In this document: one piece after another, positions 1,092-24,033 of the stretch | Layout: every line of letters starts with the position of its first letter | How positions within the stretch are numbered: the first letter of the stretch is position 1 | Source of the DNA: a virus | Taxonomy: Duplodnaviria; Caudoviricetes | Length of the DNA: 52,438 nucleotides | Reading direction: 5' to 3' (one strand) | IMG/VR virus record: IMGVR_UViG_3300016656_000038 | Location: 1 to 52,438 of that record | Made by a program: the position numbers and the translations under genes | The notes under the pieces: model-generated | The model's input: only the letters and a program-made list of their open reading frames with translations | The model's database searches: none | What the model was told of the DNA's origin: nothing

Positions 1092-1136
1092 GTCTCGATC
1101 TCCAGTGGCGAGGCGGGAACATCGCTCGCGACCGGG

Positions 1137-1171
1137 CAAAAGAAAACCCCCCGACCATGGCCGGAGGGGGA
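1137..1171 (-). terminator. Intrinsic terminator downstream of portal
   Basis: GC hairpin followed by TTTTCTTTT on the minus strand. Confidence 0.6.
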
Positions 1172-1271
1172 GATGGGATGCTCGGAGGGTTTCCTACGCG
1201 GCCGAAACTACCGGGCCAGGGCTGGTCGCTTGGAGACGACGGCCGAGACTTCTCCCGGCCGCGCCCCGTCG

Positions 1272-3233
1272 TCAAGCCTCCTGAATGGTCTCGCGCCAGT
1301 TTTCCACGATCTCCTCGAAGACCTCGGGGCCGAACTTCAGCGGACCCGGGAAGGGCTTCACCTTCTTGAGGTTCAGACCCTCGGGGGCCTTCCAGGTGAT
1401 GGTCACATGGGGCTGGTATTCGTCGAAGTCCCAGCTGGCCCCGGCGCGAACGATCTCGCCATGGCGATAGGCCAGGTTTCCCGAGGCGAACAGCAGGACC
1501 ACCGCGCCGGCCGAGCCCAGAGGTTCGACGATCCGCGCGCCGCCCGGCGGGACGTTCAGCGTCCCATCCTCGCCCGAGAAGGACCAGTCCGAGGAGACGG
1601 CCATCCAGTCGACCGGGCGCTTCGAGAACGCGATGGTCACATGGAGGTTGTCTTGGACGGTCTCGAAGCCTTGCTCCTTCGCCCAAGCGGTGAACTCGGC
1701 CGCGTTCAACAAGGGGCGATGCACATAGAGCGTCCGGGGCTTGGCGTCGCGGGCCTTGCGGGGATCGGGCCGCTGAACGACCGCTCGGACCGTCTGATCG
1801 CCGGCGACCAGCTTCAGCGTCCGAGGCTTGTTCGCTTCCTGCTCGGCCGCCGCGCGCGCCGCCGGGTTGCGCGGGTCGGTCTCCGGGTAGGGCTGACCCG
1901 TCTTGGGATCGATGTCGTTCCCGTCATCGGCCGGGTCTTCGAACGGAAGAAGTGTTCCCGCCTTGGCGTCCTCAATGGCCTGTTCCAGCCCGGGCCAGCG
2001 GCCGCTCTCGATCAAACGGTTCTGGAAGCTGACCTCTAGGGCGGCCATCGGGACCAGACCGGAGTCCGCGATGGATTTCGCCACGTCGGCCTCGCTCTTC
2101 TCGATCTCGGCCGCTTCCTTGGGCGTCGGGATACGGAGCGGGTTCCACTTCGACCAGGTCGCCTTGTCGGGCGCCTTCCCCAAGGCGGAGATCAGCAGGG
2201 CGTGATCCAGCCGGTCCATGCGGGGGTCGAGGTCGTTCCGCTGTTTGGCGCCGATCATGGCCTCATAGTTCTGGAGGTCGCTTTCTCCGGTCGCGTTCAT
2301 CCCTTGGGGGGACTGGCCGATCATCCGCGTGGCGGGAATGTCCGCCGCGCCGCTGACCACCTGGAGGAACAGCTTCGCGACGTCCGTCAGGCCGTTGAAG
2401 GCGACTTCCTTCCGCTCCCACTCTTCGGTCCCGTCGATCAGGAGGATGTTGTTCGTCGCCTTCAGGACCGCCGCCAGTTCCCAGCGGGTCATCATGTGGT
2501 CGCGGAACTCCTTCGTGATGCTCTGGCCGAGCAGCCCGGGGACCTTGACGACGTCGATCTTCGCTTCCTCGATCAGGGACGCGATCCCCTGGTTGGTCGC
2601 GCTGGCCTGCATCACCGCATCGCGGACGGCCATCAGGATAGGGTCGCCATAGACCTTCGTTTCGCCCGAGCCGGTTTCGTCGTCCGGGATGGGGGCGCCC
2701 ATGAAGGTGATCACGCGCGAGTGGTGAACCTGGGTCGTTCCCCGCTGGCCGCCCGCGAGGTTGTAATAGATCGGGAGGTCGAAGTTTCCGTCCGGGTCGT
2801 ATGGGTCCCACTGGACCGGCCCGGCCGTCAAGCGGTTGCGCGGGAGAACCAGGACTTGCTTCAGGCCGCCCACGCCGGAGATGTCGAGCGGACGCATCAG
2901 GTCCATGGCGCCGTCGTCGAGGACCAGCCCGGCGCCGCCCCGCAGGCGAGCCCACCAGATGGCCTTATGGACCTTCTGGCGAATCCCCAGCCGCTTCTCC
3001 TCGGCCTCCATGGTGCTGATGTCCTTCCGGTCGATCTGGAAGGTTCGCCATTCGCGGGTCATGTCGAAGGCCGGGATGTCGACGATCTTCCGGGCGATCC
3101 AGTCGCCCCGATAGGCGAAGTCGGCCTCGGCCTGGTTCATCTGCTGGAGGACGAACTGGCGATGAGCCGCCTTGTCCTTCCCCCAGACGCCAAGGCCAGA
3201 CGTCAAGTTCATGAGCGTGTCGCGGAGTTGCAT
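1272..3233 (-). CDS. Portal protein (DUF1073 family) with C-terminal Acb1-like 2H phosphodiesterase domain
   Basis: Portal motifs YRGDWIARKIVDIPA and ADIPATRMIGQSPQGMNATGESD; C-terminal LHVTIAFS...QPHVTITW (two HxT motifs); follows terL. Confidence 0.88.
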   Translation of the reverse strand: MQLRDTLMNLTSGLGVWGKDKAAHRQFVLQQMNQAEADFAYRGDWIARKIVDIPAFDMTREWRTFQIDRKDISTMEAEEKRLGIRQKVHKAIWWARLRGGAGLVLDDGAMDLMRPLDISGVGGLKQVLVLPRNRLTAGPVQWDPYDPDGNFDLPIYYNLAGGQRGTTQVHHSRVITFMGAPIPDDETGSGETKVYGDPILMAVRDAVMQASATNQGIASLIEEAKIDVVKVPGLLGQSITKEFRDHMMTRWELAAVLKATNNILLIDGTEEWERKEVAFNGLTDVAKLFLQVVSGAADIPATRMIGQSPQGMNATGESDLQNYEAMIGAKQRNDLDPRMDRLDHALLISALGKAPDKATWSKWNPLRIPTPKEAAEIEKSEADVAKSIADSGLVPMAALEVSFQNRLIESGRWPGLEQAIEDAKAGTLLPFEDPADDGNDIDPKTGQPYPETDPRNPAARAAAEQEANKPRTLKLVAGDQTVRAVVQRPDPRKARDAKPRTLYVHRPLLNAAEFTAWAKEQGFETVQDNLHVTIAFSKRPVDWMAVSSDWSFSGEDGTLNVPPGGARIVEPLGSAGAVVLLFASGNLAYRHGEIVRAGASWDFDEYQPHVTITWKAPEGLNLKKVKPFPGPLKFGPEVFEEIVENWRETIQEA

Positions 3234-3253
3234 TTGGTCCTCGGTCCAGGGGG

Positions 3254-4846
3254 TCAGCTGACGCCCGAAAGGTCATAGATGGTCAGCGACGATAGCACAC
3301 GGATCAAATCCGAGAGCGCGTCGACGATGTCGTCGTGTTTGGAGCCCGGGAAGTTGCAGACTTCGTCCAAGAAGGGCTTGTTCCACGGCCCCCGAACCAG
3401 CTTGATCTTCCCGAACTCCGCCTGGGAGGCGGCCGGGCCGGCGCGGACTTCCTTGTCGCCGGAGACGATCTCGCTCTTGACCGTATAGGCGGCCAGCAGG
3501 GAGACCAGGAACTCGATCTGGAACTTCGCGGCTTGGCCGGGGTCCTGGGGGATCGAGATCACCGTCCCGAAGCCGTCCTGACTGGCCGTGTTCTTGATCG
3601 TCGAGGCGATCTTCCCGGGCGTGTCCCGAAGGTGAACCAGGTCGGTAATCCAGAAGTTGCCATCTGGGGTCCGCTTGCCCTTCAGGCCGGCGGTCCAGTC
3701 GGGGTCCTTCGAGGTCTGGTTCTTCTTGGTCCCCGCGAGGTCCCAGCACCGGGCGTCGCGGCCGCCCATCGGATAGGCGTCGACGATCTCGAACCACTCG
3801 CGCTTGAACAGCCCGCCCTCGCGCGGCGTCGGCCGTTGTTGCATCTGGCCCGCCACCGAATAGGCGGTCATCTCCTTCTCGGTCCGGTCGACGGCCTCGC
3901 GGTCGAAGCGCTCCTGGAAGAGGAGTTCGCCGTCATAGACGCGCCGATCCCGGAGCAGTTCGGTCCCGTCCTTCTTGTAAACGATGCATCGGCGGTCCGG
4001 CTCGAACCTCATCGGCATCATCAGATGGGAATACCCCAGCTTCTCCGAGAGGATCATCCCGGAGACGTCCTCTTCGTGAACCCGCTGCATGATGACCAGG
4101 ATCGCGGACTTCTTCGGGTTGTTGAGGCGCGTCGGGATGGTTTCGCGCATCACCCGGACGGTCTTCTCGCGGCTGACCTTGCTCTCCCCGCCCTCGATGC
4201 TGTGGGGGTCGTCGACGATGACCCAGTCGCCCCGGTCGCCGGTTAGGGATTGCATCGGCCGGCCCTTGCGCCAGCCGGTCCGGTTGTTCTGGAAGTGGTC
4301 GTCGGCGCCGCGCCCGATGACCTTCACATGGGGATAAAGGTCGGTGAACCAGTCGGAGGTCACAAGGGACCGCATCTTCCCGGTATCGCGGGCCGCGTGT
4401 TCTTCCTTGAACGACGTCCCGAGGATGCGGAGGCCCGGCCGCTCCAGCGGCCCCCAGCCATAGGCCGGGAAGAAGACGCCCGACATGAGCGACTTCATCA
4501 TCCCGGGCGGGATGTTGATCAGGCCGCGAATGATCTCCCCGTCCGCGATGGCCTGAAGGAACTCCGCGATAGCGTCGAGCGCCCAGCCCCAGACGAACTC
4601 GGTCTCCGGCTCCAGGACGTGCCAGCCCTCGCGGACGAACCCCGGGAGGGTTTTGCATCGCTCGCGGATTTCTTCCAGCTGGCCGGCGCGCTCCTTCCGC
4701 TCGCGCTCGCGCTGGCGGCGTTCGGCGTCGCGGGCCAGGACCTCTTCGGCCTTGGCCCTATTGGAGGGATCGAGGCTCCATCGGAGCCACGCCATCGGGT
4801 CCGATGTTGGCGGCCCGGAGGGTATCGAACGCGGCGCGTTGTTCAT
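3254..4846 (-). CDS. terL: Terminase large subunit
   Basis: INIPPGMMKS Walker A, VIVDDPH Walker B, IMQRVH, C-terminal nuclease WDLA...HDDIVDALS; alternative start at 4795. Confidence 0.93.
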   Translation of the reverse strand: MNNAPRSIPSGPPTSDPMAWLRWSLDPSNRAKAEEVLARDAERRQRERERKERAGQLEEIRERCKTLPGFVREGWHVLEPETEFVWGWALDAIAEFLQAIADGEIIRGLINIPPGMMKSLMSGVFFPAYGWGPLERPGLRILGTSFKEEHAARDTGKMRSLVTSDWFTDLYPHVKVIGRGADDHFQNNRTGWRKGRPMQSLTGDRGDWVIVDDPHSIEGGESKVSREKTVRVMRETIPTRLNNPKKSAILVIMQRVHEEDVSGMILSEKLGYSHLMMPMRFEPDRRCIVYKKDGTELLRDRRVYDGELLFQERFDREAVDRTEKEMTAYSVAGQMQQRPTPREGGLFKREWFEIVDAYPMGGRDARCWDLAGTKKNQTSKDPDWTAGLKGKRTPDGNFWITDLVHLRDTPGKIASTIKNTASQDGFGTVISIPQDPGQAAKFQIEFLVSLLAAYTVKSEIVSGDKEVRAGPAASQAEFGKIKLVRGPWNKPFLDEVCNFPGSKHDDIVDALSDLIRVLSSLTIYDLSGVS

Positions 4847-5201
4847 CCGTCAGGCTTCCGAGGAACTGGGCCAGCGCGGCCGGGTCGAAGAGGGGGGCAT
4901 CGTTCTTGCCTGTTAGCTGGAGTTTCGCGCCATAGCCTCGGTCTCGGGCGTGATGGTCGAGGAAGTATTGGACCCACTTCATCTCCCCGTTGACCACCGC
5001 CTGGAACAGCTTCCCTTCCGCGACGTCCTTCAGCTTGTCGAGCGCGAGGTTCTTCAGGGCCGCAAGGTCGGGATGGCGCTTGATCCAGTGATGCACGTTC
5101 GAGGGGTCGCAGCCGAGTTCCATCGCGGCCTGCGTCGGAAGCCCGCCGTTCTTTTCCAGGGCGGCTCGAACTTGAGCCTTCGTCAGTCGTGGTCCAGCCA
5201 T
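4758..5201 (-). CDS. terS: Terminase small subunit (HTH)
   Basis: HTH TQAAMELGCDPSNVHHW, RGYG..LTGKND motif; immediately upstream of terL. Confidence 0.75.
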   Translation of the reverse strand: MAGPRLTKAQVRAALEKNGGLPTQAAMELGCDPSNVHHWIKRHPDLAALKNLALDKLKDVAEGKLFQAVVNGEMKWVQYFLDHHARDRGYGAKLQLTGKNDAPLFDPAALAQFLGSLTDEQRAAFDTLRAANIGPDGVAPMEPRSLQ

Positions 5202-5269
5202 ATGCGCGCGCGAGGTTGAAGTCGTGAAGTTGACGCGCGACCCTACCCCTTCCCTCCGGTTCGCACAAA

Positions 5270-5361
5270 GGATGCACTTTCCCGTTGACTGCTGATCCTC
5301 CAGCATGGGAGGGATGCACTTCGCCCGCCGGCGCCAACCGGCCTAGATCGAGACCACTCTG
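5270..5361 (+). promoter_or_regulatory. Early promoter/leader copy 1
   Basis: GGATGCACTT at 5270 and 5312, TTGACT at 5285, hairpin GCCGG-CGCCAA-CCGGC at 5327-5342, GATCGAGAC at 5346. Confidence 0.7.
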
Positions 5362-5598
5362 ATGAACTTCACCCTCTCGGCCATTGCGGCCTCCAGTTCC
5401 TCGCCCTTGGGCCTTCAGGTTCCCGACCGTTTGGTTCGGGCCAGGTCTGCTCGCGTCTTCCAGGCTCTCGGCTTCCAGGGCTCGGGCGCGACCTTCGCCC
5501 ATCGGTTCCTCGGGCCGGTTCACGGCCGGGGCATCCTCGACGCCAAAAAGGCCGGGGGATGCATCGTCGTCTCCGGGACGGGAATGTTCTTCGTCTAA
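5362..5598 (+). CDS. Hypothetical early protein
   Basis: ORF directly after the repeated leader. Confidence 0.6.
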   Translation: MNFTLSAIAASSSSPLGLQVPDRLVRARSARVFQALGFQGSGATFAHRFLGPVHGRGILDAKKAGGCIVVSGTGMFFV

Positions 5599-5693
5599 CC
5601 CGCCACCGCTCAAAAAATCGAACGGGGGCCTCGCCCCCTTTACCCCCGCCTTCAGTTTCCCGCCGCGCCGCCGGCTTCAAAGGAGAAGACAGA

Positions 5694-6722
5694 GTGACCG
5701 ATTTCCAGATGCCGCCCGTCGACGGGCCGCTTCATCTCCGGCGCGAGGCGCGGCGGGCCATGGGCGAAGCTATCGAGCGCCTGTCCGAAGAGACCGGCTA
5801 TCGGTTCGGCCCTCGCGGCTGGGCCTATTACGCCGAAGGTCTGGGCCTGATCACGAAAGGCGAGTTCGCCCGGTTCGAGAAGCTGCTGACCGATATGCGG
5901 AAGGACGGCGAACTGGACCCGGACGTCATCGAGCCCGACGCCTCTCGCATGGCGACCGAGGTCAACGACTTTGAGGCCAGCGAGGAGACGCCCGAGGAAC
6001 TGGCGGAATACGCCGTGAGCCGGATCGGGGAGGAGTTGAACGACTGGGCGCGCTCCTACCGCGAGACAGGATACTGGGACGGGCTCGATTACTATGTCGA
6101 GATGATCGTCGAGAAGAAGGACCTGGTCCAAATCTTCAAATCGACGGCCGACCGCTACAATGTCCGCATAACGAACGGGAAGGGCGACACCGACATCCAC
6201 ACCCGCCTCGCTATGCTGAAGCGGTTCAAGGCTCACGCTGAAGCTGGGCGCGAGTGTCGCCTGCTCGCCATCGGGGACCATGATCCCAAGGGTCTTAGCA
6301 TCGTCGATGGGCTGACGCGGACGATCATGTCCTGCGCCAACCTGAAGGGCCTCGACTGGGATTATCCCGAGTTCGAGGTCGTCAACATCGGCCTGACCGA
6401 GGAGCAAATCGACACTCTGGGCCTGATGAAGATCGGGAACCTGGAAACCGGCGGCGGCCGCGATCTTTCCGACCGCAACCACCCCGACCACTACAAGGCG
6501 TATGTCCAAGATTACATGGCCCGTTTCGGGGTCTGGAAGTGCGAGGCGAACGCTCTAGTCGGCCACCCTCGGAAGGCGGAGAACCTTCTGGAAGACGCCA
6601 TCAACCGCTTCATTCCCGGAAGTCATCCATCCATGGTCCGCTCTAGGAACCGCCCGGGCCAGGCCGCCGTGAGAAACGAGATCGCTCGCCTGATGGAAGA
6701 TTGGACGTTCTCCGATGAATAG
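5694..6722 (+). CDS. TOPRIM-domain protein (Topo VI-A / JetD-like)
   Basis: AGGAG RBS and GTG start; EMIVEKKD (E-K) and IGDHDPKG (DxD) motifs. Confidence 0.7.
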   Translation: MTDFQMPPVDGPLHLRREARRAMGEAIERLSEETGYRFGPRGWAYYAEGLGLITKGEFARFEKLLTDMRKDGELDPDVIEPDASRMATEVNDFEASEETPEELAEYAVSRIGEELNDWARSYRETGYWDGLDYYVEMIVEKKDLVQIFKSTADRYNVRITNGKGDTDIHTRLAMLKRFKAHAEAGRECRLLAIGDHDPKGLSIVDGLTRTIMSCANLKGLDWDYPEFEVVNIGLTEEQIDTLGLMKIGNLETGGGRDLSDRNHPDHYKAYVQDYMARFGVWKCEANALVGHPRKAENLLEDAINRFIPGSHPSMVRSRNRPGQAAVRNEIARLMEDWTFSDE

Positions 6723-6996
6723 GTCGGCCATCATCTCGGCCCTTGAGGCCTATCGCATCCAGCGCGGCTCGGGGGTATCGGAACCCCTCCGGGCGGTCGA
6801 CGTGGTCGGTATTGCGGACGCGATCATAGCCGCAACCGATGCCGACATGAAAACGGCTCTCAAACTCTTGGATCGCTGGGACGCAACAAGGTCCGAGGTT
6901 AGCGGCAAAGGCACGGTTGAGACCCTGACGCGCGAGTTCATCGCCAAAATGGGAGGTTTGCCCGTTCCTACCGGAAACTATCATCACCGCCCATGA
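6715..6996 (+). CDS. Hypothetical protein
   Basis: ORF overlapping the upstream stop, same operon. Confidence 0.6.
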   Translation: MNRSAIISALEAYRIQRGSGVSEPLRAVDVVGIADAIIAATDADMKTALKLLDRWDATRSEVSGKGTVETLTREFIAKMGGLPVPTGNYHHRP

Positions 6997-6998
6997 CA

Positions 6999-7090
6999 GG
7001 TCGAAACCTAGCGGGGCCAGTTTGCCGATTTGCGCAAACTACGCCCCGCGATGGTCCGCCGGTATCCTCCGGCGCTGATGAGACCAGGAG
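6999..7090 (+). ncRNA. Type II hammerhead ribozyme
   Basis: GGTC-GAAA (6999-7006), long stem III, GUC triplet 7054-7056, stem I CGCCGG/CCGGCG, CUGAUGA 7075-7081, GACC closing stem II. Confidence 0.88.
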
Positions 7091-7095
7091 TCCAA

Positions 7096-7293
7096 ATGCA
7101 GACGACCGCCCAAACCCCGCGCTTCACCCAGTGGAACGCCCAGCGCTCCGGCGCTTCCCAGACCGTTGTCGGCCTTGAAGATGGCCGAGCCCGAAAGATC
7201 GCTGGGGTCTATAGGATCAACCGAACGCCAGACGGCCAAGGATACGCCGAAGGGCTGAACGCCAAGGGCGAGGTTATCGTCTTCCTCGATTGA
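7096..7293 (+). CDS. Hypothetical protein downstream of the ribozyme
   Basis: AGGAG at 7086-7090, ATG at 7096 (MQTTAQTPRF). Confidence 0.7.
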   Translation: MQTTAQTPRFTQWNAQRSGASQTVVGLEDGRARKIAGVYRINRTPDGQGYAEGLNAKGEVIVFLD

Positions 7294-7325
7294 TCCGACC
7301 GCCATCCCCTGGGCCTCGGCCTGGG

Positions 7326-7409
7326 GGATGCACTTTTCGCTTTACTGCGCCCGGGGAGCATGGGATGCACTTCGGGTCGCCCGCGCCAACGGGTTAGGAG
7401 ATCGAGACA
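7326..7409 (+). promoter_or_regulatory. Early promoter/leader copy 2
   Basis: Two GGATGCACTT boxes, TTTACT, hairpin CCCG-CGCCAA-CGGG at 7380-7393, AGGAGATCGAGAC. Confidence 0.7.
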
Positions 7410-7898
7410 ATGCTTAACGCCCTTCTAGTTTCTTGCGCCCTCGGGTTCGGTTCCGCGACCCCGATCACGGCTGACACCTTCGTCAGCGCCCGCCACGTCT
7501 TCCTGAACGACGTCTGTAACGTCGCCGGCCGCGAGGTCGAGATCGTCTTCCAGGACGCCGAATCCGACATCCTGATCGGCCGGGTGAAGCGCCCGTTCGA
7601 CGCGCCGCTGGCCGTATCCTGCGCCCGACTGGAGACCGGCTCGACCTATCGGCTGGTCGGCGCCAAGGATCGCTCGCGCGCCCGGGCGACAGCGACCTAT
7701 TACGACATCCGGGTCGAGACCGGCATCGTCCGCGATATGCGCGGCCTGACCGGCCGGGCCGAGCCGGGAATGTCCGGCGGGGCCGTCCTGAACGATCAGG
7801 GCGCCATCGTCGGGATCATCTCGGCCGAGGGCCGGAACGGCGTCGTCGGGGTCCGGGAGTTCGCCACCACTGGTCTATGCGAAGGCATGGGCCAATGA
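7410..7898 (+). CDS. Trypsin-like serine protease, probably exported
   Basis: SARHV (His), SDILI (Asp), PGMSGG (Ser); hydrophobic N-terminus. Confidence 0.75.
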   Translation: MLNALLVSCALGFGSATPITADTFVSARHVFLNDVCNVAGREVEIVFQDAESDILIGRVKRPFDAPLAVSCARLETGSTYRLVGAKDRSRARATATYYDIRVETGIVRDMRGLTGRAEPGMSGGAVLNDQGAIVGIISAEGRNGVVGVREFATTGLCEGMGQ

Positions 7899-8209
7899 GC
7901 GAGGGCGGGTCCTTCGGGTTGGTCTGCCCTCATTGCGAGGGCGGGTCCAATCTGGTGAAGGACAGCCGCCCGAACTCCATCGGGATACGCCGTCGTCACC
8001 TTTGCGGCGATTGCGGCGGGCGCTTCACCACCCAAGAGATCGTCGTCGAGGAGGGTGTCGGGATGGTTGTCCAGAACAACGGGAACCACCCTCCGCTCTG
8101 CGAGCCCCTTTCGTTCCACCTGAAGCGCGTCGAGGACGCCATGGCGGACAAGTTCGCCGCAGCGATCGGTCGCTTCTTTTCCGCCTTCGTCAAAACCGAG
8201 GACTTCTGA
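7895..8209 (+). CDS. NrdR-like zinc-ribbon protein
   Basis: CPHC...VKDSR...IRRRHLCGDCGGRFTTQE. Confidence 0.7.
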   Translation: MSEGGSFGLVCPHCEGGSNLVKDSRPNSIGIRRRHLCGDCGGRFTTQEIVVEEGVGMVVQNNGNHPPLCEPLSFHLKRVEDAMADKFAAAIGRFFSAFVKTEDF

Positions 8210-8352
8210 TGGCCTACTCGCCCCCGCCCAGCCGCGACCCGGTTCCCGGCCTTGTCCGCTTGGTCCTGATGATCTTCGCCGCGCTGGTCGCCCTTGTGAT
8301 CAGCAGCCCCGTCATCCTGCGCGCCGTCATCGCTTTGTTTGCGACGCTCTGA
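8209..8352 (+). CDS. Small membrane protein
   Basis: TGATG coupling on both sides; hydrophobic 47 aa. Confidence 0.6.
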   Translation: MAYSPPPSRDPVPGLVRLVLMIFAALVALVISSPVILRAVIALFATL

Positions 8353-8768
8353 TGGCTCGCCAGCCTGTCCAGAACATCGAGCCGATCTGCATCGAGTGCG
8401 GCAAGCTGGCCGAGCAAACCGACGGCCGGCCGATCTATCCAGACCGTCCCGAGTTCTGGGATCGCGTCTATTTCCGGTGCGAGTGCGGCGCCTACGTCGG
8501 CGCCCATCCGGGGACCGACATCCCGCTCGGTTATCCGGCTGGGCCGCATACGCGCCGCGCCCGCTCGCAAGCCCATGCGGCCTTCGACCCCCTCTGGATG
8601 CGGAAGGCCAACCGAGACAAGATCGGCAAGGGGAAGGCCCGGGGCCTGGGCTATAAATGGCTCGCGGAGCAGCTGGGGATCGAGCCCGCCGCCTGCCACA
8701 TCAGCCACTTTGACGCCGCGACCTGTCAGAAGGTCGTCCGGCTTTGCATGGGAGACCGCTCCAGATGA
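8352..8768 (+). CDS. Zinc-finger protein (DUF3268-like)
   Basis: CIEC...CECGAYVGAH...AHAAFDPLW...CHISHF. Confidence 0.75.
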   Translation: MARQPVQNIEPICIECGKLAEQTDGRPIYPDRPEFWDRVYFRCECGAYVGAHPGTDIPLGYPAGPHTRRARSQAHAAFDPLWMRKANRDKIGKGKARGLGYKWLAEQLGIEPAACHISHFDAATCQKVVRLCMGDRSR

Positions 8769-9097
8769 ACGACCCGACCATAGACCCCGAGGCCGCCCTT
8801 CGAATGGAGATCGCCGCCCATAGCGTCACCCAAGCGAAACTCCTCGATGCGGAGGCCGCCTTGGACATCTGTCGCCAAACGATCCAAGACCAGAAGAGCG
8901 CGCGCATCGATCCCGATATGCCGATCCTCTCGAAGGAGGCAAGGGATCGCCTTCACGACAGCGCCATGGCCTCGCAGGCGATGGCCGAAACCCGCGAGGA
9001 ACGCGTCGAGGCGGCCGCCTTGATCATGCTCTTGGAGTGGCAGGACGAAGCGATCCGCAAGCGTCCTGAAATCCGTTACCTGGTTGACCGTCGATGA
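8765..9097 (+). CDS. Hypothetical protein
   Basis: ATGA coupling with upstream gene. Confidence 0.6.
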   Translation: MNDPTIDPEAALRMEIAAHSVTQAKLLDAEAALDICRQTIQDQKSARIDPDMPILSKEARDRLHDSAMASQAMAETREERVEAAALIMLLEWQDEAIRKRPEIRYLVDRR

Positions 9098-9336
9098 ACG
9101 TCTATCGTTGCCGCTTCATGCTGATTTGTCCGGCGAACGGAATCGCCGTCACCTACGCGCTGGAGGTCGAGGCCGTCCACATGATCCGGGTCGAGGCCAT
9201 ACAGACGGCGATCCTCGATCTGGGCGAAACCGGCTTCCATGAAGACGCGGCGGACAAGCTGTTCGTCGCCTTGGGCGGCCGACAGACGCTCCGCGCGCAT
9301 CACCACGGCGTTGACATCGAGACCTTTCGCGGCTGA
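9094..9336 (+). CDS. Small QueF-like (T-fold) protein
   Basis: F-x3-CP...VE...FHE pattern resembling QueF; coupled to the DpdA-like gene. Confidence 0.5.
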   Translation: MNVYRCRFMLICPANGIAVTYALEVEAVHMIRVEAIQTAILDLGETGFHEDAADKLFVALGGRQTLRAHHHGVDIETFRG

Positions 9337-10354: not shown

Positions 10355-10434
10355 TGCATCTTTTCGGTTGCTGCGCGCGCCGGAGCATGGGATGCACTTC
10401 TTCACCGGCGCCAACCGGATAGGAGATCGAGACG
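10353..10434 (+). promoter_or_regulatory. Early promoter/leader copy 3
   Basis: Inverted box AGTGCATC at 10353, GGATGCACTT at 10390, hairpin CCGG-CGCCAA-CCGG at 10405-10418, AGGAGATCGAGAC. Confidence 0.7.
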
Positions 10435-11477: not shown

Positions 11478-11498
11478 GCCTCGCCAAAGGAGAAGCCT

Positions 11499-12639: not shown

Positions 12640-13904
12640 ACCGCCTCGGCCCGGCTCGCCTCGACTTCCGCGAACAGCTGGCCCGTCTCCTCCAGGCGGG
12701 CCTTTTCGCCTGTGAAGGCCTCCCAGCGCTTCACCGTGACGTCCACATAGGCCGGGTCGAGTTCGACCGCGAGGCAGATGCGCTTCGTCATCTGGGCCGC
12801 GATGATCGTCGTCCCCGATCCGCTGAAGGGTTCATAGACGCGGTCGCCCGGCTCGGAGTTGTTCTCGATGGGCCGGCGCATAGCCTCGACCGGCTTCTGG
12901 GTCCCATGGCCGGTGTCGCTCTTGCGGTGATCGATGTCCCAGACGGTCGACTCTTTCCGCGACCCCTGCCAGTGACCCTTCCCGCCCTTGCGGACCACAT
13001 ACCAGCAAGGTTCGTGCTGCCAGTGGAAGTGTCCGCGCCCGATGATCGAGCGCGACTTCCTCCAGATGATCTGCGCGCGCGGCTCGAAGCCGACCGCCTG
13101 AAGGCTCGCCAGGACCTCGGCCGTCGCAAGTCCGCCGTGCCAGATATAGGCGACCTCGCCCGGGAAGAGCGCCCAAGCCTCGCGCCAGTCGGCCTTGTGG
13201 TCGTTCTTGACCAGGCCGCGCTTCACCGTCGGGTCGGAGTTCAGCTTGCGGCCGTCGGCCCGTTCGGCCTGGTTCCGCCATTCGGCGTCGTATTCGACCC
13301 CATAGGGCGGGTCGGAGACCATCAGATGGGGCTTCGTCCCGCGAAGGACCGCCTCGACCACCTTCGGGTCGGTCGAATCCCCGCAGGCCAGCCGGTGATC
13401 GCCCAGAAGCCAAACGTCACCCGCTCGGGATACTGGAGCCGCTGGGGGATCGCCAGCGTCCGCGTCCGCGTCGCGGAGCATCTTCGGGGTCTTGAAGAGG
13501 TCCAGGACCTCCTTTTCGTCGAAGCCGGTCATGTCGAGCGAGAGGCCGGCCTTCTTGAGGTCCAGCATCTCGGTTCGAAGGATGTCCATATCCCAGTCCG
13601 CGTCGAGCGCGATCCGGTTGTCCGCGATGGCGAAGGCTCGCCATTCGTCTTCGCTCAACCCCAAGACGGTGATCGTCGGGATGCGCTCCAGGCCCTCCTC
13701 GATGGCGGCCTCGACGCGACCGTTTCCGGCCCCGATGGTCTCGCCGTCATCCTTCAGGAGGACCGGGTTCCTGAAGCCGAACCGCCGGAAGGCCGTCCGC
13801 AGCTTCTTGATCTGGGAAGCCGGGTGACGGCGGGCGTTGCGCGGGTCTGGGCGGAGGTCGTTCGGGTCCCGATAGACGATTTCTAGATCTGCGAACTGGG
13901 TCAT
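12636..13904 (-). CDS. ParB-N domain / N6-N4 DNA methyltransferase fusion
   Basis: RNARRH..FGFRNPVL..GNGR..ADNR; SDPPY; HGTQKP; EPFSGSGTT. Confidence 0.88.
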   Translation of the reverse strand: MTQFADLEIVYRDPNDLRPDPRNARRHPASQIKKLRTAFRRFGFRNPVLLKDDGETIGAGNGRVEAAIEEGLERIPTITVLGLSEDEWRAFAIADNRIALDADWDMDILRTEMLDLKKAGLSLDMTGFDEKEVLDLFKTPKMLRDADADAGDPPAAPVSRAGDVWLLGDHRLACGDSTDPKVVEAVLRGTKPHLMVSDPPYGVEYDAEWRNQAERADGRKLNSDPTVKRGLVKNDHKADWREAWALFPGEVAYIWHGGLATAEVLASLQAVGFEPRAQIIWRKSRSIIGRGHFHWQHEPCWYVVRKGGKGHWQGSRKESTVWDIDHRKSDTGHGTQKPVEAMRRPIENNSEPGDRVYEPFSGSGTTIIAAQMTKRICLAVELDPAYVDVTVKRWEAFTGEKARLEETGQLFAEVEASRAEAV

Positions 13905-15531: not shown

Positions 15532-16280
15532 CAGATGGCCTCCTCGACTTCCTCGACCAGCGGCGGCGGCGCGCTGATCTGGGGAAGCGGCTCCTCCCCG
15601 CTGGCGATCCGGCGAAGACGCTCGGCCATGGCCTGCTTTGTCTCGCCCGGCGGGCCGACGCGGCGCGACTGGTCGGTCTTGAAGTTCAGGATGACCTTCC
15701 CGTCCGCGTCCAGGATACCGGCGGCCTTGGCGGCCTCGACGTCGGCCCGGCGTTGCTCCTCGGTCTTCGGCGGCGGGTTATCCTCGACGAACGCGGCCGC
15801 CCGCTTGGCCCGATAGGAGGCCATCCATAGTTCCTTCGCGTAGGGCTCGGCCCGCTGGAACAGCTGCTCCGGCTTGGGATAGAACCCGCTCCCGTCGCGC
15901 CCCCAGATGACGAAAGCCTCCCGGATCGCCTCGATGGGGAGAGGGGCCAGAGCGCGCAGATAGATCGAGAAGAGGGCCTGATACTCGCCCGGCGACTTGT
16001 TCCCGAGGCCGTAAACCGACGAATGCTCGACCAGCAGGCCCATGATGTCGACCGGATCGGCCCGGGCGGCGCGCGCCTCTAGGTCGGCCGCGACCTCGAC
16101 CGCCTTGTCCTTCAGCTTGGGGACCCGGGCGATCTGGCGAACGACTTCATCGGCCTTCGCGCTGGAATCCGTTAAGCGCGCCCAGAGCGCCGTCCCGCAT
16201 AGCGTCGATGCGTTCGCCGCGAGATGCTGGCCCCCGACCAGTTCCAAGCCCGGAGCCGTATTGGTTAGAGCGGTAGTCAT
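15531..16280 (-). CDS. Putative helicase loader (lambda P-like position)
   Basis: Follows the initiator gene; IREAF..W..FYPKP motif. Confidence 0.45.
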   Translation of the reverse strand: MTTALTNTAPGLELVGGQHLAANASTLCGTALWARLTDSSAKADEVVRQIARVPKLKDKAVEVAADLEARAARADPVDIMGLLVEHSSVYGLGNKSPGEYQALFSIYLRALAPLPIEAIREAFVIWGRDGSGFYPKPEQLFQRAEPYAKELWMASYRAKRAAAFVEDNPPPKTEEQRRADVEAAKAAGILDADGKVILNFKTDQSRRVGPPGETKQAMAERLRRIASGEEPLPQISAPPPLVEEVEEAI

Positions 16281-16866
16281 TGGACCGTCCTTTCAGGTCG
16301 TCATTGTGGGTTCGAAGCCAACGGTGGAACGCACGATCAAAGTCAGTTTTCCCGGCGGCGAACTCCCACTCGCGGAAGCGGGCCAGCTGCTCCTCGAATA
16401 TACCATCGGGCCAGCCGAACGCCGATACCTTCTCCCGATGGGCGTCCTTCGGCTCCCAGTCATCCGGGACCAGATGCATTTTCCCTCGCGCTTTAGGAGA
16501 GGGGGAGGATTGACGGTTAGATGATGGTTTGGGCGAACGTGCTTCCCCCCCGCCCGAAGCCCATTCGGGCGAAGCATCTTCGGGGGACGAATATCCTTCG
16601 GGTCTGATTTTGTAGATCACGCCTCGACCGGGCTTAGGGTCTCGCGTCAGATGGCCGGCCGTTTCCAGACGGGTGATCGCCATGCTGACGGTTCGGTCGG
16701 TCAAGCTGGTTTTCTTGACCAGGTCCGCCTTGTCGGATCGCTTCGACGTGATCGCTATCCAAGTCACGCCCGCGTCGTTGGCGGCGTCCGCCAGGGCGAG
16801 CAGGACCATTTTGTCGGTCGAATGAAGGTCCATCATCCAGACGTGGGTCATCAGTCGAATGCTCAT
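16147..16866 (-). CDS. Replication initiator (N-terminal winged HTH)
   Basis: KMVLLALADAANDAG..LVKKTSLTDRTV..AITRLE..G; C-terminal DFDRAFHRW. Confidence 0.7.
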   Translation of the reverse strand: MSIRLMTHVWMMDLHSTDKMVLLALADAANDAGVTWIAITSKRSDKADLVKKTSLTDRTVSMAITRLETAGHLTRDPKPGRGVIYKIRPEGYSSPEDASPEWASGGGEARSPKPSSNRQSSPSPKARGKMHLVPDDWEPKDAHREKVSAFGWPDGIFEEQLARFREWEFAAGKTDFDRAFHRWLRTHNDDLKGRSNDYRSNQYGSGLGTGRGPASRGERIDAMRDGALGALNGFQREGR

Positions 16867-17123
16867 TTGGCGATGATCCTTGTCTCGGTTCTCTGGCCCG
16901 GGTTGACCTTCCTCTCGATCATCCCGCGTTCGACCAGGACCTTGAGGCCACCTTGGAGGCCGCGCTCGGACATTCCCGTCGCCTTCATCAGTTCCGGCAA
17001 AGTGGCGTAGGAGATGCCGACCGGACCAGCGAAGCGCGACAGGGCAAGAAACGCCATCTTGCCCGCGACGGTCGGGATGCGCGGCAAGAGGCGCCACGCG
17101 AGGTCTTCGTGATAACGGTTCAT
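16863..17123 (-). CDS. Small winged-HTH protein
   Basis: LPELMKATGMSERGLQGGLKVLVERGMI; alternative start at 17141. Confidence 0.7.
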   Translation of the reverse strand: MNRYHEDLAWRLLPRIPTVAGKMAFLALSRFAGPVGISYATLPELMKATGMSERGLQGGLKVLVERGMIERKVNPGQRTETRIIAK

Positions 17124-17182
17124 CCTCTTGCGCTCCCCCATCGGGTCGGCATATGGATTCGGCAGGCCTGGCGGCAGTTCAT

Positions 17183-17298
17183 GGGTTTGGTCTCGATCAA
17201 GTTCCGCCCATCGGACGGTCAGAGTTTAGGGGCTGGCGACCTTTGGCGAGGCGCCAGCCCCGTTTGTTTCAGTCCTATGCGTCGACGGGGTCCGTCAA
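17183..17298 (-). promoter_or_regulatory. Replication-gene promoter/leader with CGCCAA hairpin
   Basis: TTGACG on the minus strand, hairpin GGGGCTGGCG-CCT-CGCCAA-AGG-T-CGCCAGCCCC at 17229-17261, GATCGAGAC at 17190-17198. Confidence 0.6.
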
Positions 17299-17302
17299 GC
17301 GC

Positions 17303-17971
17303 TTAGAACATGGAAGGCTGGCGAGCGTCGTCCTGACGGTCCAGCGTCCGAAGAAGCGTCTCCCCCTGGTGTTTCTTGTCCCAGATGAACCAGCCGTTCA
17401 GCATGGGCGGCGAGCCCTGGCCGGTGAAGTCGATCTTCCAGCGCATGATGTAGGCGCGCGCCGGCGGGTGTTTGGCCCAGAAGGGACCCAGCCCTCCAGC
17501 GCCCGGCCAAGTCCAGTTCAGCAAGAGGGCCATATAGTCGAGGTCGAGGACGTCGAGGGCGTGATAGAGCCATCGGGCCTTCCCGTTCCCCCATCCGCAC
17601 TGATCGAAAGGCGGGTTCTGGATGGTCGCGCGCGCCGGCGCCTCGGTGAAGTCATAGAAGCTTCTGATCTCGGCGCCGACGCCCCGGTCGACCAGGTCGG
17701 ACGAATAGGTCTTCAGGCCGACGGCCTGCATCTCCCGAACCAGCGCGTTATCGCCGCAGCTACCATCCCAGATGCAGTCGAAGTCCCGAAGGCGATCCAT
17801 CTCCGCCCGGAGAAGCGCGCGGATTGGCTCTGGCGGGGTTGGATAGAACTCGTCTTTCTCGCGCTCCAGGCCCTCGGGGTCCTTCACATAGGAGCCGTCG
17901 AGAAGGCGGCGCGCGACCGGCTTCCGGCGCTTGCCGGTTGCCCTGAAGAGGCCAGAGGCGGAGGCGGTCAT
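17303..17971 (-). CDS. Amino (N6-adenine-type) DNA methyltransferase
   Basis: EFYPTP, WDGSCGD (SAM binding), IQNPPF. Confidence 0.78.
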   Translation of the reverse strand: MTASASGLFRATGKRRKPVARRLLDGSYVKDPEGLEREKDEFYPTPPEPIRALLRAEMDRLRDFDCIWDGSCGDNALVREMQAVGLKTYSSDLVDRGVGAEIRSFYDFTEAPARATIQNPPFDQCGWGNGKARWLYHALDVLDLDYMALLLNWTWPGAGGLGPFWAKHPPARAYIMRWKIDFTGQGSPPMLNGWFIWDKKHQGETLLRTLDRQDDARQPSMF

Positions 17972-18666
17972 ATGGCTTCCTGAAGATGGGCCATCAGCTG
18001 GGCGCCGACGTGGCGCGTATAGGCCGGCGGAACCGCCTCGCTGATCTCGCCCATGCTGGCCCACGGCATCCCCATCAGCTGACGGGCCAAGGCGGGACGA
18101 TCTTCGCCTGGGAAGTCCACCGTCCGCCCCGTTCCCTTGCCGGTTCGATAGTCGCCGCCGCGCGCCCGAAGGTGTCCCCCATAGACGTTCGCGATGGGAT
18201 AGCGGGCGCCCGGATCATCTGGCGCCTGAAGCGGGAAGTTCGTTTCGAACAGCCGCTCGCGCGATAGGTCGAACCGCTGGCCCCGCGACGTCACCAGATG
18301 GCAATCGAACATCGTCCCGAAGAGCGAGACCGGATCGATCAGTTCGTCGCGCGCCCCCCGGACGTTCTCGATCACATACGGCAGGCCCGAGGCCTTCAGA
18401 AGAGCCCGCGTCTGGGGGATCAGGTTAAGCCATCGGCTCTTGTCGTTGTTCATCTCGGTTAAGCCCTGGCAGGGCGGCGACGCGTGAACGGCGTCGAACA
18501 TCCGAAGGAACTCCAGCGGCAGGGCCAAAACGTCCGCGACGATCAGCGGATGGGGGTTCCGGCGGTGCTGGACCAAATCGACGCCCATCACGTCGAAGCC
18601 GGCCTGACGATAGCCCTCGCCGGCGCCGCCGGCGCAAGCGAAGAGGTCGAGGATGCGAGGGCTCAT
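17968..18666 (-). CDS. C5-cytosine DNA methyltransferase
   Basis: LDLFACAGG, ASPPCQ, IENV, EAVPP. Confidence 0.85.
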   Translation of the reverse strand: MSPRILDLFACAGGAGEGYRQAGFDVMGVDLVQHRRNPHPLIVADVLALPLEFLRMFDAVHASPPCQGLTEMNNDKSRWLNLIPQTRALLKASGLPYVIENVRGARDELIDPVSLFGTMFDCHLVTSRGQRFDLSRERLFETNFPLQAPDDPGARYPIANVYGGHLRARGGDYRTGKGTGRTVDFPGEDRPALARQLMGMPWASMGEISEAVPPAYTRHVGAQLMAHLQEAI

Positions 18667-18863: not shown

Positions 18864-19402
18864 AGAAGGCCCCCTCGGCCCTTACTCCAGATGATGCGGT
18901 CCCACCGTTCGTTTTGGCGGGGGTTGAGTTCGCGGATGCCGATCTTCCAGCCGGCGAAAGCGTCGGCCGCGTCTTCTTGGCCTTCCTTCTTCGTCGGAGG
19001 GAGATCGATCCCGCAGAGAAGTGCGACCTCGACCATGTCGGCCTTGCTGGCGTCGTGACGGCCCGTCAGTTCCTTCTTCAGGTCGCGAAGGTCCTTCTCG
19101 AAGGTCGGGATTTCGTGACGCGCCGCGACCGTCTCCAGGATCACCCCGAGGCCATAGATTTTCCTGATCTTCAGCAGCGTGTCGGTCGGGGTCAGGATCG
19201 GGCTTTCGTAACCGATCGATGTCGGCCGGAAGGTCGCGATGTGGGTCTCGACCCAGCGCTCGAAGAAGAGGCCCATCGCCCCCAGGTCCTCGCCAAAGTC
19301 GGGGATGCGGAAGGCCCCGCAGACGGGACGGGTCTCGCCCGTCCCGCTGCAAAAGCCGGTCAGCCCTGGCGCGAGGTCAAAGAAGCTGACCTGGTCGACC
19401 AT
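18860..19402 (-). CDS. RuvC-like Holliday junction resolvase
   Basis: FDLAPGLTG, GYESP, KKELTG...ASKADM, DAADA. Confidence 0.75.
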   Translation of the reverse strand: MVDQVSFFDLAPGLTGFCSGTGETRPVCGAFRIPDFGEDLGAMGLFFERWVETHIATFRPTSIGYESPILTPTDTLLKIRKIYGLGVILETVAARHEIPTFEKDLRDLKKELTGRHDASKADMVEVALLCGIDLPPTKKEGQEDAADAFAGWKIGIRELNPRQNERWDRIIWSKGRGGLL

Positions 19403-20154
19403 CAGACCGCCTCGGCGCCGTCGTCGTCGCCGCTCGGGTCGGACCCCTCGATGGTCGACGGGCGCGACGTCTGGGCCGCCAGTTCGTCGGCCGTGGCCTC
19501 GAAGTCATCCCGGGTTTGCTCGGGCTCGACCGAAGGCGGCACCGCCATGGAAGGACCTTCCGGCTTGGGCTTCTTGTCCGGCGCCAGGCTCCAGGCGTTC
19601 ATCTCCTGGCCGCGATCATATTCCTGCATCCAAGGTTGCCAGAACCGTTCGGGGACGCCCGCCTCCTTCGGGTCGCGCTTGTCCGCCCGAAGGCCGGCCG
19701 TGTAGCCGTGACCGCGCCAGTCCAGTTCGTCCTTCGCGGCTTCCGGCATCCGGTCGAGGAGATCGCCTTGGGTTCCGACAGGCAGGCCCAGATATTCGCG
19801 GAAGCGCGTCCGACGCTCTTCGACCTCGCGGAGGTCCTTTCGGGTCCCCTTGACCGCGCTGTCCTTCAGGAGGTCGCGGATTTCGCCCTTCTTGAAGCCG
19901 GCCGCCTGGGCCTGGTCGAGGATCGAGTTAACGGCGTCGCGCTTTTCCTTCACGACGGCTTGCGCCTTCTCGACCTCCGCCTGGGCGGTCCGCATCTTCG
20001 CCATCACGGATAGAAGCTGGGCCTGTTCGGCCTCGCGGATGGCCTCTAGGTTGTTCTTCGGGGCGCCGTCATCTTTCCGCCCGGTCTCGGTCGGGGGCGG
20101 GGAGTGAAGGTCCCGGATTTTGTCGCTTTGCGACTTTGGCTTTCGTCCCGCCAT
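19402..20154 (-). CDS. Protein with a GapR/DUF2312-like segment
   Basis: Coiled coil then AQAAGFKKGEIRDLLK...YLGL; acidic tail. Confidence 0.5.
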   Translation of the reverse strand: MAGRKPKSQSDKIRDLHSPPPTETGRKDDGAPKNNLEAIREAEQAQLLSVMAKMRTAQAEVEKAQAVVKEKRDAVNSILDQAQAAGFKKGEIRDLLKDSAVKGTRKDLREVEERRTRFREYLGLPVGTQGDLLDRMPEAAKDELDWRGHGYTAGLRADKRDPKEAGVPERFWQPWMQEYDRGQEMNAWSLAPDKKPKPEGPSMAVPPSVEPEQTRDDFEATADELAAQTSRPSTIEGSDPSGDDDGAEAV

Positions 20155-20205
20155 CGGGTCGGTCTCCTGGGCGCCGCAGGGCCGGGGGCGCCATCCGGTA
20201 TCCCG

Positions 20206-20631
20206 TCAGGGATTGGTCGATCCGATCTCTTTCAAAGCCTTTTCGGCCGCTCGGATGATAACGGTCTGCGCATCGATCTTCTTCTGGACCAGAAGCCTTG
20301 AAGCCTCGAACCGGACCAGCTTTATCCGGGCGGCCGCGATCTCTTGGCGCAGTTTCTGAACCTTCTCCCGTTGATACGGATCAACGCTGAATGAGGACTC
20401 CGGGGAAGCGCTGATCCGTCTAAGAGCCGCCTCGACGAAGGGGATCGCTTTCATGGGGATCGCGTCACGATAGGCCCACATGCGGACGCGGACGTCGCTC
20501 ACTGGAAAGCCGACGTCGGTTAAATCGCGAGCCATGGCGGCGCGAGAGGGCCATTTGGAGAAGACCCTGGCGAAGGTCTCTTTTGTCTCGATCATGGGCT
20601 GCAAACTGGTTCGGGCCGTTACGTCCGTCAA
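20206..20631 (-). CDS. Cro-like HTH regulator
   Basis: SRAAMARDL..VSDVRVRMWAYRDAIP; first gene left of the divergent promoter. Confidence 0.6.
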   Translation of the reverse strand: MTDVTARTSLQPMIETKETFARVFSKWPSRAAMARDLTDVGFPVSDVRVRMWAYRDAIPMKAIPFVEAALRRISASPESSFSVDPYQREKVQKLRQEIAAARIKLVRFEASRLLVQKKIDAQTVIIRAAEKALKEIGSTNP

Positions 20632-20729
20632 GCACGATTTTTCCGTCTTGCGGTGTAACGCGATGCATGGCTTATAGTCTGGCTATCGAGACCACCCAGC
20701 GCCGGCGCCAACCGGCAGGAGAACCCCAG
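20632..20729. promoter_or_regulatory. Divergent promoter region with leader copy
   Basis: AT-richer gap; TTGCGG and TATAGT; ATCGAGAC at 20685; GCCGG-CGCCAA-CCGGC at 20701-20716; AGGAG. Confidence 0.65.
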
Positions 20730-24000: not shown

Positions 24001-24033
24001 CCCAGCCCCTCAACCCCAAAGGCAAATCTTAAC

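Follow-up and report, generated by a model that had tools for sequence, protein, structure and literature searches.

The boxB hairpin of the lambdoid nut sites has a short stem of free sequence and a conserved loop, which is read on the nascent early RNA by a small phage protein. The coat protein/replicase operators of the RNA phages, and the target of Com in the mom leader of phage Mu, are small hairpins at or adjacent to the ribosome-binding site (RBS), where a protein that recognises the loop bases determines how the downstream gene is translated. RegA of phage T4 has many targets, and binds unstructured RNA. Here we describe a small hairpin with the loop CGCCAA, which recurs before unrelated genes in a viral DNA of 52,438 bp (the entire IMG/VR record IMGVR_UViG_3300016656_000038, referred to below as the window), and which is probably a selected RNA structure at translation start regions.

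Repeated regulatory cassettes are known in a few phage groups, and the sections of the papers cited here leave their mechanisms largely without test. Promoter-early stem-loop (PeSL) cassettes of T4-type phages are described there as small, repeated, intergenic units in which promoter, stem-loop, Shine-Dalgarno sequence and start codon are combined (PMC4122927; PMC2839356). The SAS/ESAS of cluster K mycobacteriophages consist of a start-associated motif, often with an inverted repeat just upstream; in the cited sections, the authors give their function as still without test in 2025 (PMC3203893, PMC12699233).

A first-pass annotation of the window had listed six CGCCAA hairpins and six copies of the sequence ATCGAGAC as a recurrent leader element, read either as a nut-like boxA/boxB antitermination site or as a translational control site. 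All six hairpins are present at the positions given in Table 1, as are all six ATCGAGAC sites (5347, 7401, 10426 and 20685 on the plus strand, 17190 and 1092 on the minus strand). The element is larger than was described, and in its full form is a cassette of about 90–100 nt. The 5′ half has a first box (GGATGCACTTT, box1) and, 4–6 bases on, a −35-like hexamer that reads TTGACT, TTTACT or GTTGCT; variable sequence separates this from an invariant CATGG(GA), after which comes a second box (GGATGCAC, box2), such that two GATGCAC boxes stand around the hexamer and CATGG. The 3′ half is composed of 2–8 variable bases, the hairpin, 0–2 bases, AGGAG (which some copies lack or have in degenerate form), then either ATCGAGAC or a variant rich in GAGAC, and ATG. 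The first-pass annotation had overlooked the promoter- or operator-like upstream half, the place of the cassettes at mosaic joints, and the share of ATCGAGAC copies that is coding.

The structure was examined in a non-circular manner, by locating cassettes in the window and three related contigs solely by the trigger CATGG...GATGCA[CT]. The best hairpin in the following 34 nt has a CGCCAA loop in 12/12 cassettes, 11 of which are distinct. The loop is closed by five distinct, fully paired stems of 4–5 bp (GCCGG/CCGGC, GCCCG/CGGGU, CCGG/CCGG, TCGA/TCGA and GGCCG/CGGCC). In 13 distinct rows of 30 nt, three of the five stem pairs change on both sides, and the covariation score is 0.518, compared to 0.131 in shuffles (0/500 reach the observed score) and at most 0.169 when the pairing partner is slid. 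In an alignment of 11 cassettes, none of the six loop columns varies, in contrast to those of stem, spacer and flanks. The hairpin is within the minimum-energy fold in 9/9 leader segments that contain the loop. Folded in isolation, the main copies have −5.8 to −8.1 kcal/mol, and the version with the TCGA stem has −2.2 kcal/mol. All copies are in the sense orientation.

The stems are also more frequent than expected. CGCCAA occurs 76 times in the window (35.3 expected), mostly within genes. A flanking stem of at least 4 bp is found at five of these sites, with 0.47 expected from the 0.62% background of any six-base loop position in the window, and four of the five are leader copies (5332, 7384, 10409 and 20706). 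The six training sites of a covariance model score at least 17.4 bits; the best other hit in the window has 15.5 bits (E 0.23), and no further copy was found there. The 12/12 cassettes and the covariation bear out the first description, in that the element is structured, its loop is conserved, its stems are compensatory, and it stands before genes in the sense orientation. It is concluded that the element is probably an RNA structure under selection at translation start regions.

The position of the hairpin is constrained. It is always found at a translation start region, its 3′ end being 9–19 nt before the ATG, and 0–2 nt before GGAG wherever GGAG is present. The loop centre is about 14–27 nt before the ATG, and the hairpin thus abuts or overlaps the ribosome-binding region. 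Three copies that have no promoter-like half keep this position: those at 20701 and 11479 in the window, and one in the related contig L074, which lies 13 nt after the stop codon of a small open reading frame (ORF). Because these copies keep the RBS position, the hairpin travels with the start region and not with the promoter. Of the two functions first proposed, translational control fits this anatomy, since the hairpin ends just before the RBS or overlaps it even at promoter-less internal starts, while the boxA/boxB analogy is not supported. The copy at 20701 stands behind a −10-like TATAGT, which suggests that transcription starts at about 20685. The copy at 11479 is a minimal one, with 3 bp, −1.5 kcal/mol and a 3′ arm lying within the RBS (21.9 bits as a training row of the covariance model).

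Table 1. Cassettes, hairpins, ATCGAGAC starts and gene blocks of the window
Feature	Position	Strand	Details
Cassette 1	5266–5364	plus	box1 GGATGCACTTT 5270–5280; TTGACT 5285–5290; CATGGGA 5304–5310; box2 GGATGCAC 5312–5319; hairpin GCCGG/CCGGC 5327–5342 (−8.1 kcal/mol); ATCGAGAC 5347–5354, without GGAG; ATG 5362 of 78-aa ORF
Cassette 2	7321–7412	plus	box1 7326–7333; TTTACT 7341–7346; CATGGGA 7359–7365, overlapping box2 7363–7370; hairpin CCCG/CGGG 7380–7393, with outer G–U pair (G)CCCG-CGCCAA-CGGG(U) 7379–7394 (−6.7 kcal/mol); AGGAG 7396–7400; ATCGAGAC 7401–7408; ATG 7410 of trypsin-like protease gene
Cassette 3	10348–10437	plus	inverted box1 (AGTGCATC) 10353–10360; GTTGCT 10367–10372; CATGGGA 10386–10392; box2 10390–10397; hairpin CCGG/CCGG 10405–10418 (−5.8 kcal/mol); AGGAG 10421–10425; ATCGAGAC 10426–10433; ATG 10435
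Hairpin module at rightward early start	20673–20732	plus	TATAGT 20673–20678; ATCGAGAC 20685–20692; hairpin GCCGG-CGCCAA-CCGGC 20701–20716; AGGAG 20717–20721; ATG 20730 of first gene of rightward early operon
Minimal internal copy	11475–11501	plus	TAA 11475–11477; hairpin CCT-CGCCAA-AGG 11479–11490; GGAG 11489–11492; ATG 11499 of DUF3489 gene
Long hairpin	17229–17261	minus	CCT/AGG around loop CGCCAA, within 13-bp stem with T bulge; just after stop codon of gene 17303–18064
TTG-ATCGAGAC start	17120–17200	minus	26-codon ORF (MIETK...); ATCGAGAC 17190–17197; overlaps start 17141 of 92-aa winged-helix gene
GGAG-ATCGAGAC-GTG start region of head-morphogenesis gene	1089–1103	minus	covariance model 10.3 bits, E 3.8
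ATG-ATCGAGAC	20585–20595	minus	first codons (MIET) of first leftward early gene
TCAT-CGCCAA-ATGA	16863–16876	minus	3′ arm holds ATG of gene 16147–16866 and TGA of gene 16863–17141
Late operon	from 5201, then across record ends, 52382 down to about 29970	minus	TerL, portal, head morphogenesis; head, tail and lysis genes in the continuation beyond the record ends
First late gene	start 5201	minus	small helix-turn-helix, terminase-small-like
TerL	3254–4846	minus	
Portal	1272–3233	minus	
Head-morphogenesis gene	181–1091	minus	
Accessory block	5362–12639	plus	methyltransferases, trypsin-like protease, zinc-ribbon proteins, HNH-like ORF, DUF3489 gene
Leftward early operon	20595 down to 12636	minus	
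Rightward early operon	20730–29589	plus	
Methyltransferase-type ORFs	5694–6722, 10743–11477, 12636–13904, 17303–18064, 17968–18666		

The second component, ATCGAGAC, occurs 11 times in the window (3.2 expected; 0/100 shuffles reach 11), and six of the 11 copies fall in the non-coding 10.6% of the window, on a rough gene map. Part of this excess is coding, because five copies (9316, and 38483, 50484, 20585 and 17190 on the minus strand) read as Ile-Glu-Thr codons. The non-coding copies at 1092 (minus), 5347, 7401, 10426 and 20685 are still above expectation for about 5.6 kb of non-coding sequence. In three genes (1092 minus, 7401 and 10426), ATCGAGAC forms the spacer of 8 nt that separates GGAG from the start codon, and ends 0–1 nt before the latter; the distance is 7 nt at 5347, and all four are in sense. 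GGAG is missing at 5347 and its homologues, where the GAG within ATCGAGAC may provide the sole Shine-Dalgarno-like bases. Relative to the hairpin, ATCGAGAC lies on the 3′ side in three copies (5347, 7401 and 10426) and on the 5′ side in the copy at 20685. That neither its order nor its distance relative to the hairpin is fixed argues against a boxA-like partner. ATCGAGAC is not a boxA; we read it as part of a reused, unstructured start region, in which it is mostly the spacer from RBS to start codon.

The remaining occurrences of loop and motif are less regular. At 1092 (minus), both ATCGAGAC and the CGCCAC variant reported by the first-pass annotation are present, without a hairpin of their own, and CGCCAC is inside another predicted stem; this looks like a decayed copy. 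The start codon at the ATCGAGAC of 17190 opens an ORF of merely 20–26 codons. There is no RBS upstream of the first leftward early gene (start 20595), whose mRNA is possibly leaderless. The two minus-strand starts at 20595 and 17200 both read (A/T)TG-ATC-GAG-AC-AAA, that is MIETK. The long hairpin at 17229–17261 has −26.4 kcal/mol, z −5.0, and 17.4 bits as a training row of the covariance model, and has no U tract on the minus strand. On the plus strand, the same hairpin is followed by GTTTGTTTC, a U-rich tail, and is terminator-like. Its membership of the family is uncertain. A trans RNA made from this plus strand, kissing the leader loops by way of a UUGGCG loop, was considered and rejected: the loop closes to 4 nt by G–U pairs, and no promoter was seen. 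The structure at 16863–16876 was likewise not accepted as a sure member. It has −0.7 kcal/mol, and about 0.45 such hairpins are expected by chance, with which it is compatible.

Turning to the 5′ half of the cassette, box1 is present as its reverse complement in cassette 3, where it overlaps the stop codon of the HNH-like ORF upstream, and in the L074 homologue of this cassette. Such an inversion fits double-stranded DNA bound by a protein, rather than a motif in RNA. Promoters of sigma-54, extracytoplasmic function (ECF) or heat-shock type were rejected, given that their spacings do not fit when judged by eye against the consensus sequences. A leader peptide starting at the ATG of CATGGGA was also rejected, as frames and stops differ among the copies (again by eye). 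In the promoter region of the rightward early operon, a box-related motif, GATGCAT/GCATGG, lies between the −35-like hexamer and TATAGT. On the other side of cassette 1, the first late gene (ATG 5201, minus) has no Shine-Dalgarno sequence. Upstream of it (5202–5270, minus), GGGTAGGGTC (GGATAGGGTC in one contig) and CCTCGCGCGCG are common to the four related contigs. TAGGGT is a candidate −10 of this gene and has box1 just upstream, so that box1 might serve both divergent promoters.

Besides the window, the element is carried by three contigs, L054 and L074 from IMG/VR and L183 from a metagenome, whose TerL is 95–96% identical. Motif scans of IMG/VR returned 118 loci and 9 loci, among which L054 and L074 alone are real. 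In a search based on TerL (53 loci, 595,256 nt), leader CGCCAA hairpins were found solely in the two relatives of 95–96% identity; L138, L150 and L163 look like chance matches in coding-type sequence, and the element is absent from the TerL relatives at 52% identity or less. Two loci related to the early-operon ATPase have no analogue of the element. Of two genome scans for a prophage copy, one gave 0 matches and the other at least 120, none with a hairpin among the matches listed. The metagenome scan gave one contig, L183, and a search with a 102-aa protein returned L074 again and nothing else. The pattern CGCCAA...AGATCGAGAC gave no stem of at least 3 bp among the 118 matches listed of at least 119 loci. 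A search for hairpin plus RBS gave four loci, with L184 alone as a lone look-alike. L184 is an unrelated viral contig of 55% G+C, in which, within 13416–13450, CCCGG-CGCCAA-CCGGG stands 4 nt before AAGGAG and ATG; there is no second copy in the 14 kb examined, and this hairpin may be due to chance.

Comparison with the relatives places the cassettes exactly at mosaic breakpoints. The accessory blocks of the relatives hold other cassettes, and homology to the window is largely limited to the cassettes and breaks at their edges. Window 7326–7409 matches 9752–9833 of L054 and the reverse complement of 5118–5199 of L074, and the genes after the ATG are unrelated; window 5268–5357 matches 8048–8138 of L054, likewise with unrelated genes after the ATG. 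The long block of homology through the terminase genes stops at 5320, between box2 and hairpin. In L074, an additional small ORF lies between two identical hairpins. In other samples, a contig of run X4 departs from the window at 10422, inside AGGAG and just after the hairpin; 812 letters of other sequence follow before it rejoins the window at 11505, directly behind the hairpin at 11479 and ATG 11499. A contig of run X7 diverges exactly at 7326, the start of box1. Phage RecT/exonuclease genes could recombine such short homologies without a special site. A 47-codon membrane-like ORF (8210–8353) and a DUF3268 zinc-finger gene (8352–8768) are 78–95% identical in L054/L074, with replaced neighbours; the zinc-finger protein is a candidate regulator.

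The reading that we prefer, though tentatively, is that the hairpin could be an mRNA operator at translation start regions, read by a putative trans-acting factor. It is suggested by a loop that stays the same on stems of free sequence, by an orientation that is strictly sense, by coupling to the RBS rather than to a promoter, and by the unrelated genes that follow. The 5′ half of the cassette would act on DNA, as a promoter with operator or activator sites (the two GATGCAC boxes, the −35-like hexamer and CATGG). The 3′ half would act on the mRNA, where the hairpin of 4–5 bp would present the CGCCAA loop at the 5′ edge of the RBS, followed by an unstructured GGAG-AUCGAGAC-AUG start region. The loop would be read by a factor, most likely a phage-encoded RNA-binding protein. 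In a limited group of early and accessory genes, this factor would control the binding of 30S and possibly how long the mRNA lasts; 30S binding is proposed because the loop lies 4–27 nt before the start codon. The regulon would comprise the starts at 5362, 7410, 10435 and 20730, and perhaps 11499 and the leader of 17141. The same module of about 16–100 nt would double as homology for cassette exchange, given that it precedes unrelated genes. We infer that the hairpin is transcribed in the three cassettes and bound by the factor, the effect being either repression or activation. Sequestration of the RBS by the CUUC tail of box2 was rejected as a general mechanism, as it is possible in some copies (the fold of cassette 3) but not in all. 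A bolder idea, which we consider unlikely, is that of a 'regulatory socket', in which recombination of any gene into the space between two modules would automatically place it under a single translational regulator of the phage that is specific for the hairpin; the RecT/exonuclease pair of the phage could carry out the exchange.

Several observations weigh against an RNA operator. The element is known from four closely related contigs (TerL 95–96% identical), so that the 'covariation' is among paralogues, to which template switching in quasi-palindromes could contribute. The 13 covariation rows were chosen by a stem of at least 3 bp, which makes the inner three pairs circular. Whole-leader folding z-scores are unremarkable (−1.3 to +1.3), and the hairpins at 11479 and 17229, which are two of the six first listed, and at 16867 are weak or atypical. 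In a sigma-70 consensus scan, no promoter-like region of the element passes, and no RNA run containing the window sequence was listed. Transcription that starts 3′ of the hairpin in the three cassettes would void the RNA reading there. Finally, no RNA-binding regulator was recognised among the scanned proteins (PHROGs, Pfam and NCBIfam), in which many small ORFs have no family.

This last point also agrees with one alternative, a passive leader element without a dedicated factor, in which the hairpin insulates the RBS from upstream sequence, and may also protect an mRNA 5′ end that is either primary or processed in the box2 region, while AUCGAGAC keeps the start region unstructured. The constant site just 5′ of the RBS and the stability of these small hairpins agree with such a role, as do the minimum-energy folds, in which RBS and start codon are mostly unpaired. 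It is nevertheless unlikely, in our view, as it leaves unexplained why none of the six loop bases changes across 11 distinct cassettes whose stems, spacers and flanks drift, and why the weak TCGA version is retained. Another explanation is that one leader was duplicated a few times and that hairpin and ATCGAGAC are passengers with no function beyond shared ancestry. The window copies before 5362, 7410 and 10435 are indeed paralogues of one repeat of about 100 nt and hence not independent, the family is limited to four near-identical contigs, and the ATCGAGAC excess is partly Ile-Glu-Thr coding. Yet ancestry alone does not account for five different, fully complementary stems around an unchanged loop, for the independent contexts at 20701 and in L074, which have no similarity beyond the module, or for five hairpins where 0.47 are expected. 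It is already disfavoured, and we regard it as very improbable.

The two other alternatives give the hairpin a different target. If it were an analogue of boxB from which RNA polymerase receives a phage antiterminator, and if ATCGAGAC or box2 played the part of boxA, one would understand a small hairpin with conserved loop and free stem, in sense and downstream of promoter-like sequences (12/12 cassettes), one copy of which is in the leader of the rightward early operon; the phage also has intrinsic terminators, and antitermination may therefore exist. What makes this improbable is the arrangement. No linear box lies at a fixed short distance 5′ of the hairpin, given that ATCGAGAC varies in order and spacing and that neither 20701 nor the L074 copy without promoter has box2, and the hairpin always abuts the RBS, even 13 nt behind a stop codon, a place that a nut site does not need. 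There is no convincing intrinsic terminator downstream in the operons that bear the hairpin (rho-dependent terminators lie outside the prediction): terminator-like sites in these do not exceed shuffles (20 vs 13.1, and 12 vs 9.7), and the sole candidate downstream of a hairpin is the weak-tailed stem at 5624–5638. Clear terminators are found after 5598, at 17229–17261 itself and in the hairpin-free late operon, which has one at about 1130–1165 (minus) and yet no leader hairpin. The terminator scan called no leader hairpin, their 3′ flank being the RBS and not a U tract, and the family scans found no N-, Q- or other antiterminator family, although many small ORFs have no family. An element acting as DNA, in which the inverted repeat with its fixed spacer is a protein-binding site or an extruded hairpin and serves for attC-like or HUH-like recombination or nicking at cassette boundaries, would account for the mosaic joints at the modules, the small ORF between two identical hairpins in L074, and the 4-bp palindromes (CCGG, TCGA, GGCC) in three of the five stems. 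Against it, a binder of double-stranded DNA would not tolerate the differing half-sites, it is left unexplained why the hairpin is strictly in sense and at a fixed distance from the RBS, no integrase, HUH nuclease or transposase is among the scanned proteins, and the phage's own RecT and exonuclease could suffice without a special site. There is little probability in this either.

Two terminator-like stems are noted here. In the gap between the portal and head-morphogenesis genes (1125–1170, minus), a strong stem, CCCUCCGGCC...GGUCGGGGGG, is followed by UUUUCUUUU and resembles an intrinsic terminator; its place inside the late operon hints at attenuation or antitermination of late transcription. 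After the 78-aa ORF, a GGGGGCCTCGCCCCC hairpin (5624–5638) has a 3-U tail on the plus strand, where it was not called, and a better U tail on the minus strand. The start codon of the gene after it is GTG 5694, preceded by AGGAG, rather than the ATG at 5559 that opens the longest ORF, and the intergenic stretch 5599–5694 is conserved in L054, L074 and L183.

The source of the window is an uncultivated freshwater siphovirus of 52 kb, with a G+C content of 65.9%. Positions 1–22 are identical to 52417–52438, and this 22-nt 'direct terminal repeat' looks like the overlap expected of a circular assembly, not like true long terminal repeats. The nearest cultured phages have a TerL of at most 44% identity and infect Rhizobium/Sinorhizobium, Erythrobacter and Paracoccus, with one Shewanella phage in addition. 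Given that these hosts are mostly alphaproteobacteria, the host is probably one too. The gene map (Table 1) was derived from the family scans, which covered 36, 42, 35 and 34 proteins per scan, in overlapping sets. RecT-like and exonuclease genes are encoded, and these scans gave no family of RNA polymerase, sigma factor, integrase or antiterminator. Four ORFs, including a ParB-like/methylase fusion, match PHROGs families that carry the name DNA methyltransferase. One more (5694–6722) has DNA similarity to annotated methyltransferase genes, yet its own PHROG is named topoisomerase. This count is unusually high for a phage of 52 kb. A tRNA-Met (CAT) gene is found at 29687–29763 (minus), between the rightward early operon and the lysis genes, and a tRNA is the sole match to Rfam at gathering thresholds in the whole window. 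An Rfam search of 5200–10500 by E-value gave four chance-level hits, none on a cassette.

The signature is unusually clean, in that a tiny hairpin with an invariant loop and compensatory stems stands at the RBSs of unrelated genes and at the points where cassettes are swapped, within the limits set by an uncultivated phage and four near-identical contigs. If a loop-specific factor exists, it would define a new post-transcriptional regulon in phages of high-GC Proteobacteria, and the hairpin would be a compact, portable control part. The socket, if true, would combine a many-target RNA operator system with an integrase-free capture of gene cassettes.

In sequence, the element matches no family, and the closest kinds are PeSL, SAS/ESAS, and boxB or operator hairpins of the coat-protein type. 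The likeness to PeSL is in the repeated cassette, which ends in a Shine-Dalgarno sequence and start codon and is found at mosaic joints. By the cited account, PeSL too precede accessory genes and are located at insertions, deletions and replacements between close relatives, but have their stem-loop upstream of the promoter, where it acts as a terminator (PMC4122927). Here, the hairpin is 2–8 nt downstream of box2 and before the RBS, is not followed by a U tract, and keeps its loop invariant; by scan, the promoter-like part is not sigma-70-like, and the phage group is different. With SAS/ESAS, as far as the cited sections describe them, the element shares an asymmetric, lineage-restricted motif with a Shine-Dalgarno core, in one orientation and a few bases before the starts of non-structural genes. 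The 13-bp SAS consensus is GGGATAGGAGCCC (PMC3203893), compared to GGAG-ATCGAGAC here, and an AGGAG core alone is common. ESAS has arms of 17 bp with, by its authors' account, little support for an RNA hairpin, whereas the arms here are 4–5 bp, with compensatory changes and a fixed loop; there are also far fewer copies here.

Unlike boxB, the hairpin has no boxA at a fixed place, is tightly coupled to the RBS and has copies within operons right after stop codons, with no convincing intrinsic terminator downstream and no antiterminator gene recognised. The coat-protein and Com operators each act on one gene, whereas here one type of hairpin stands before at least four unrelated genes. In its many-target logic, the system described here is nearer to RegA of T4.

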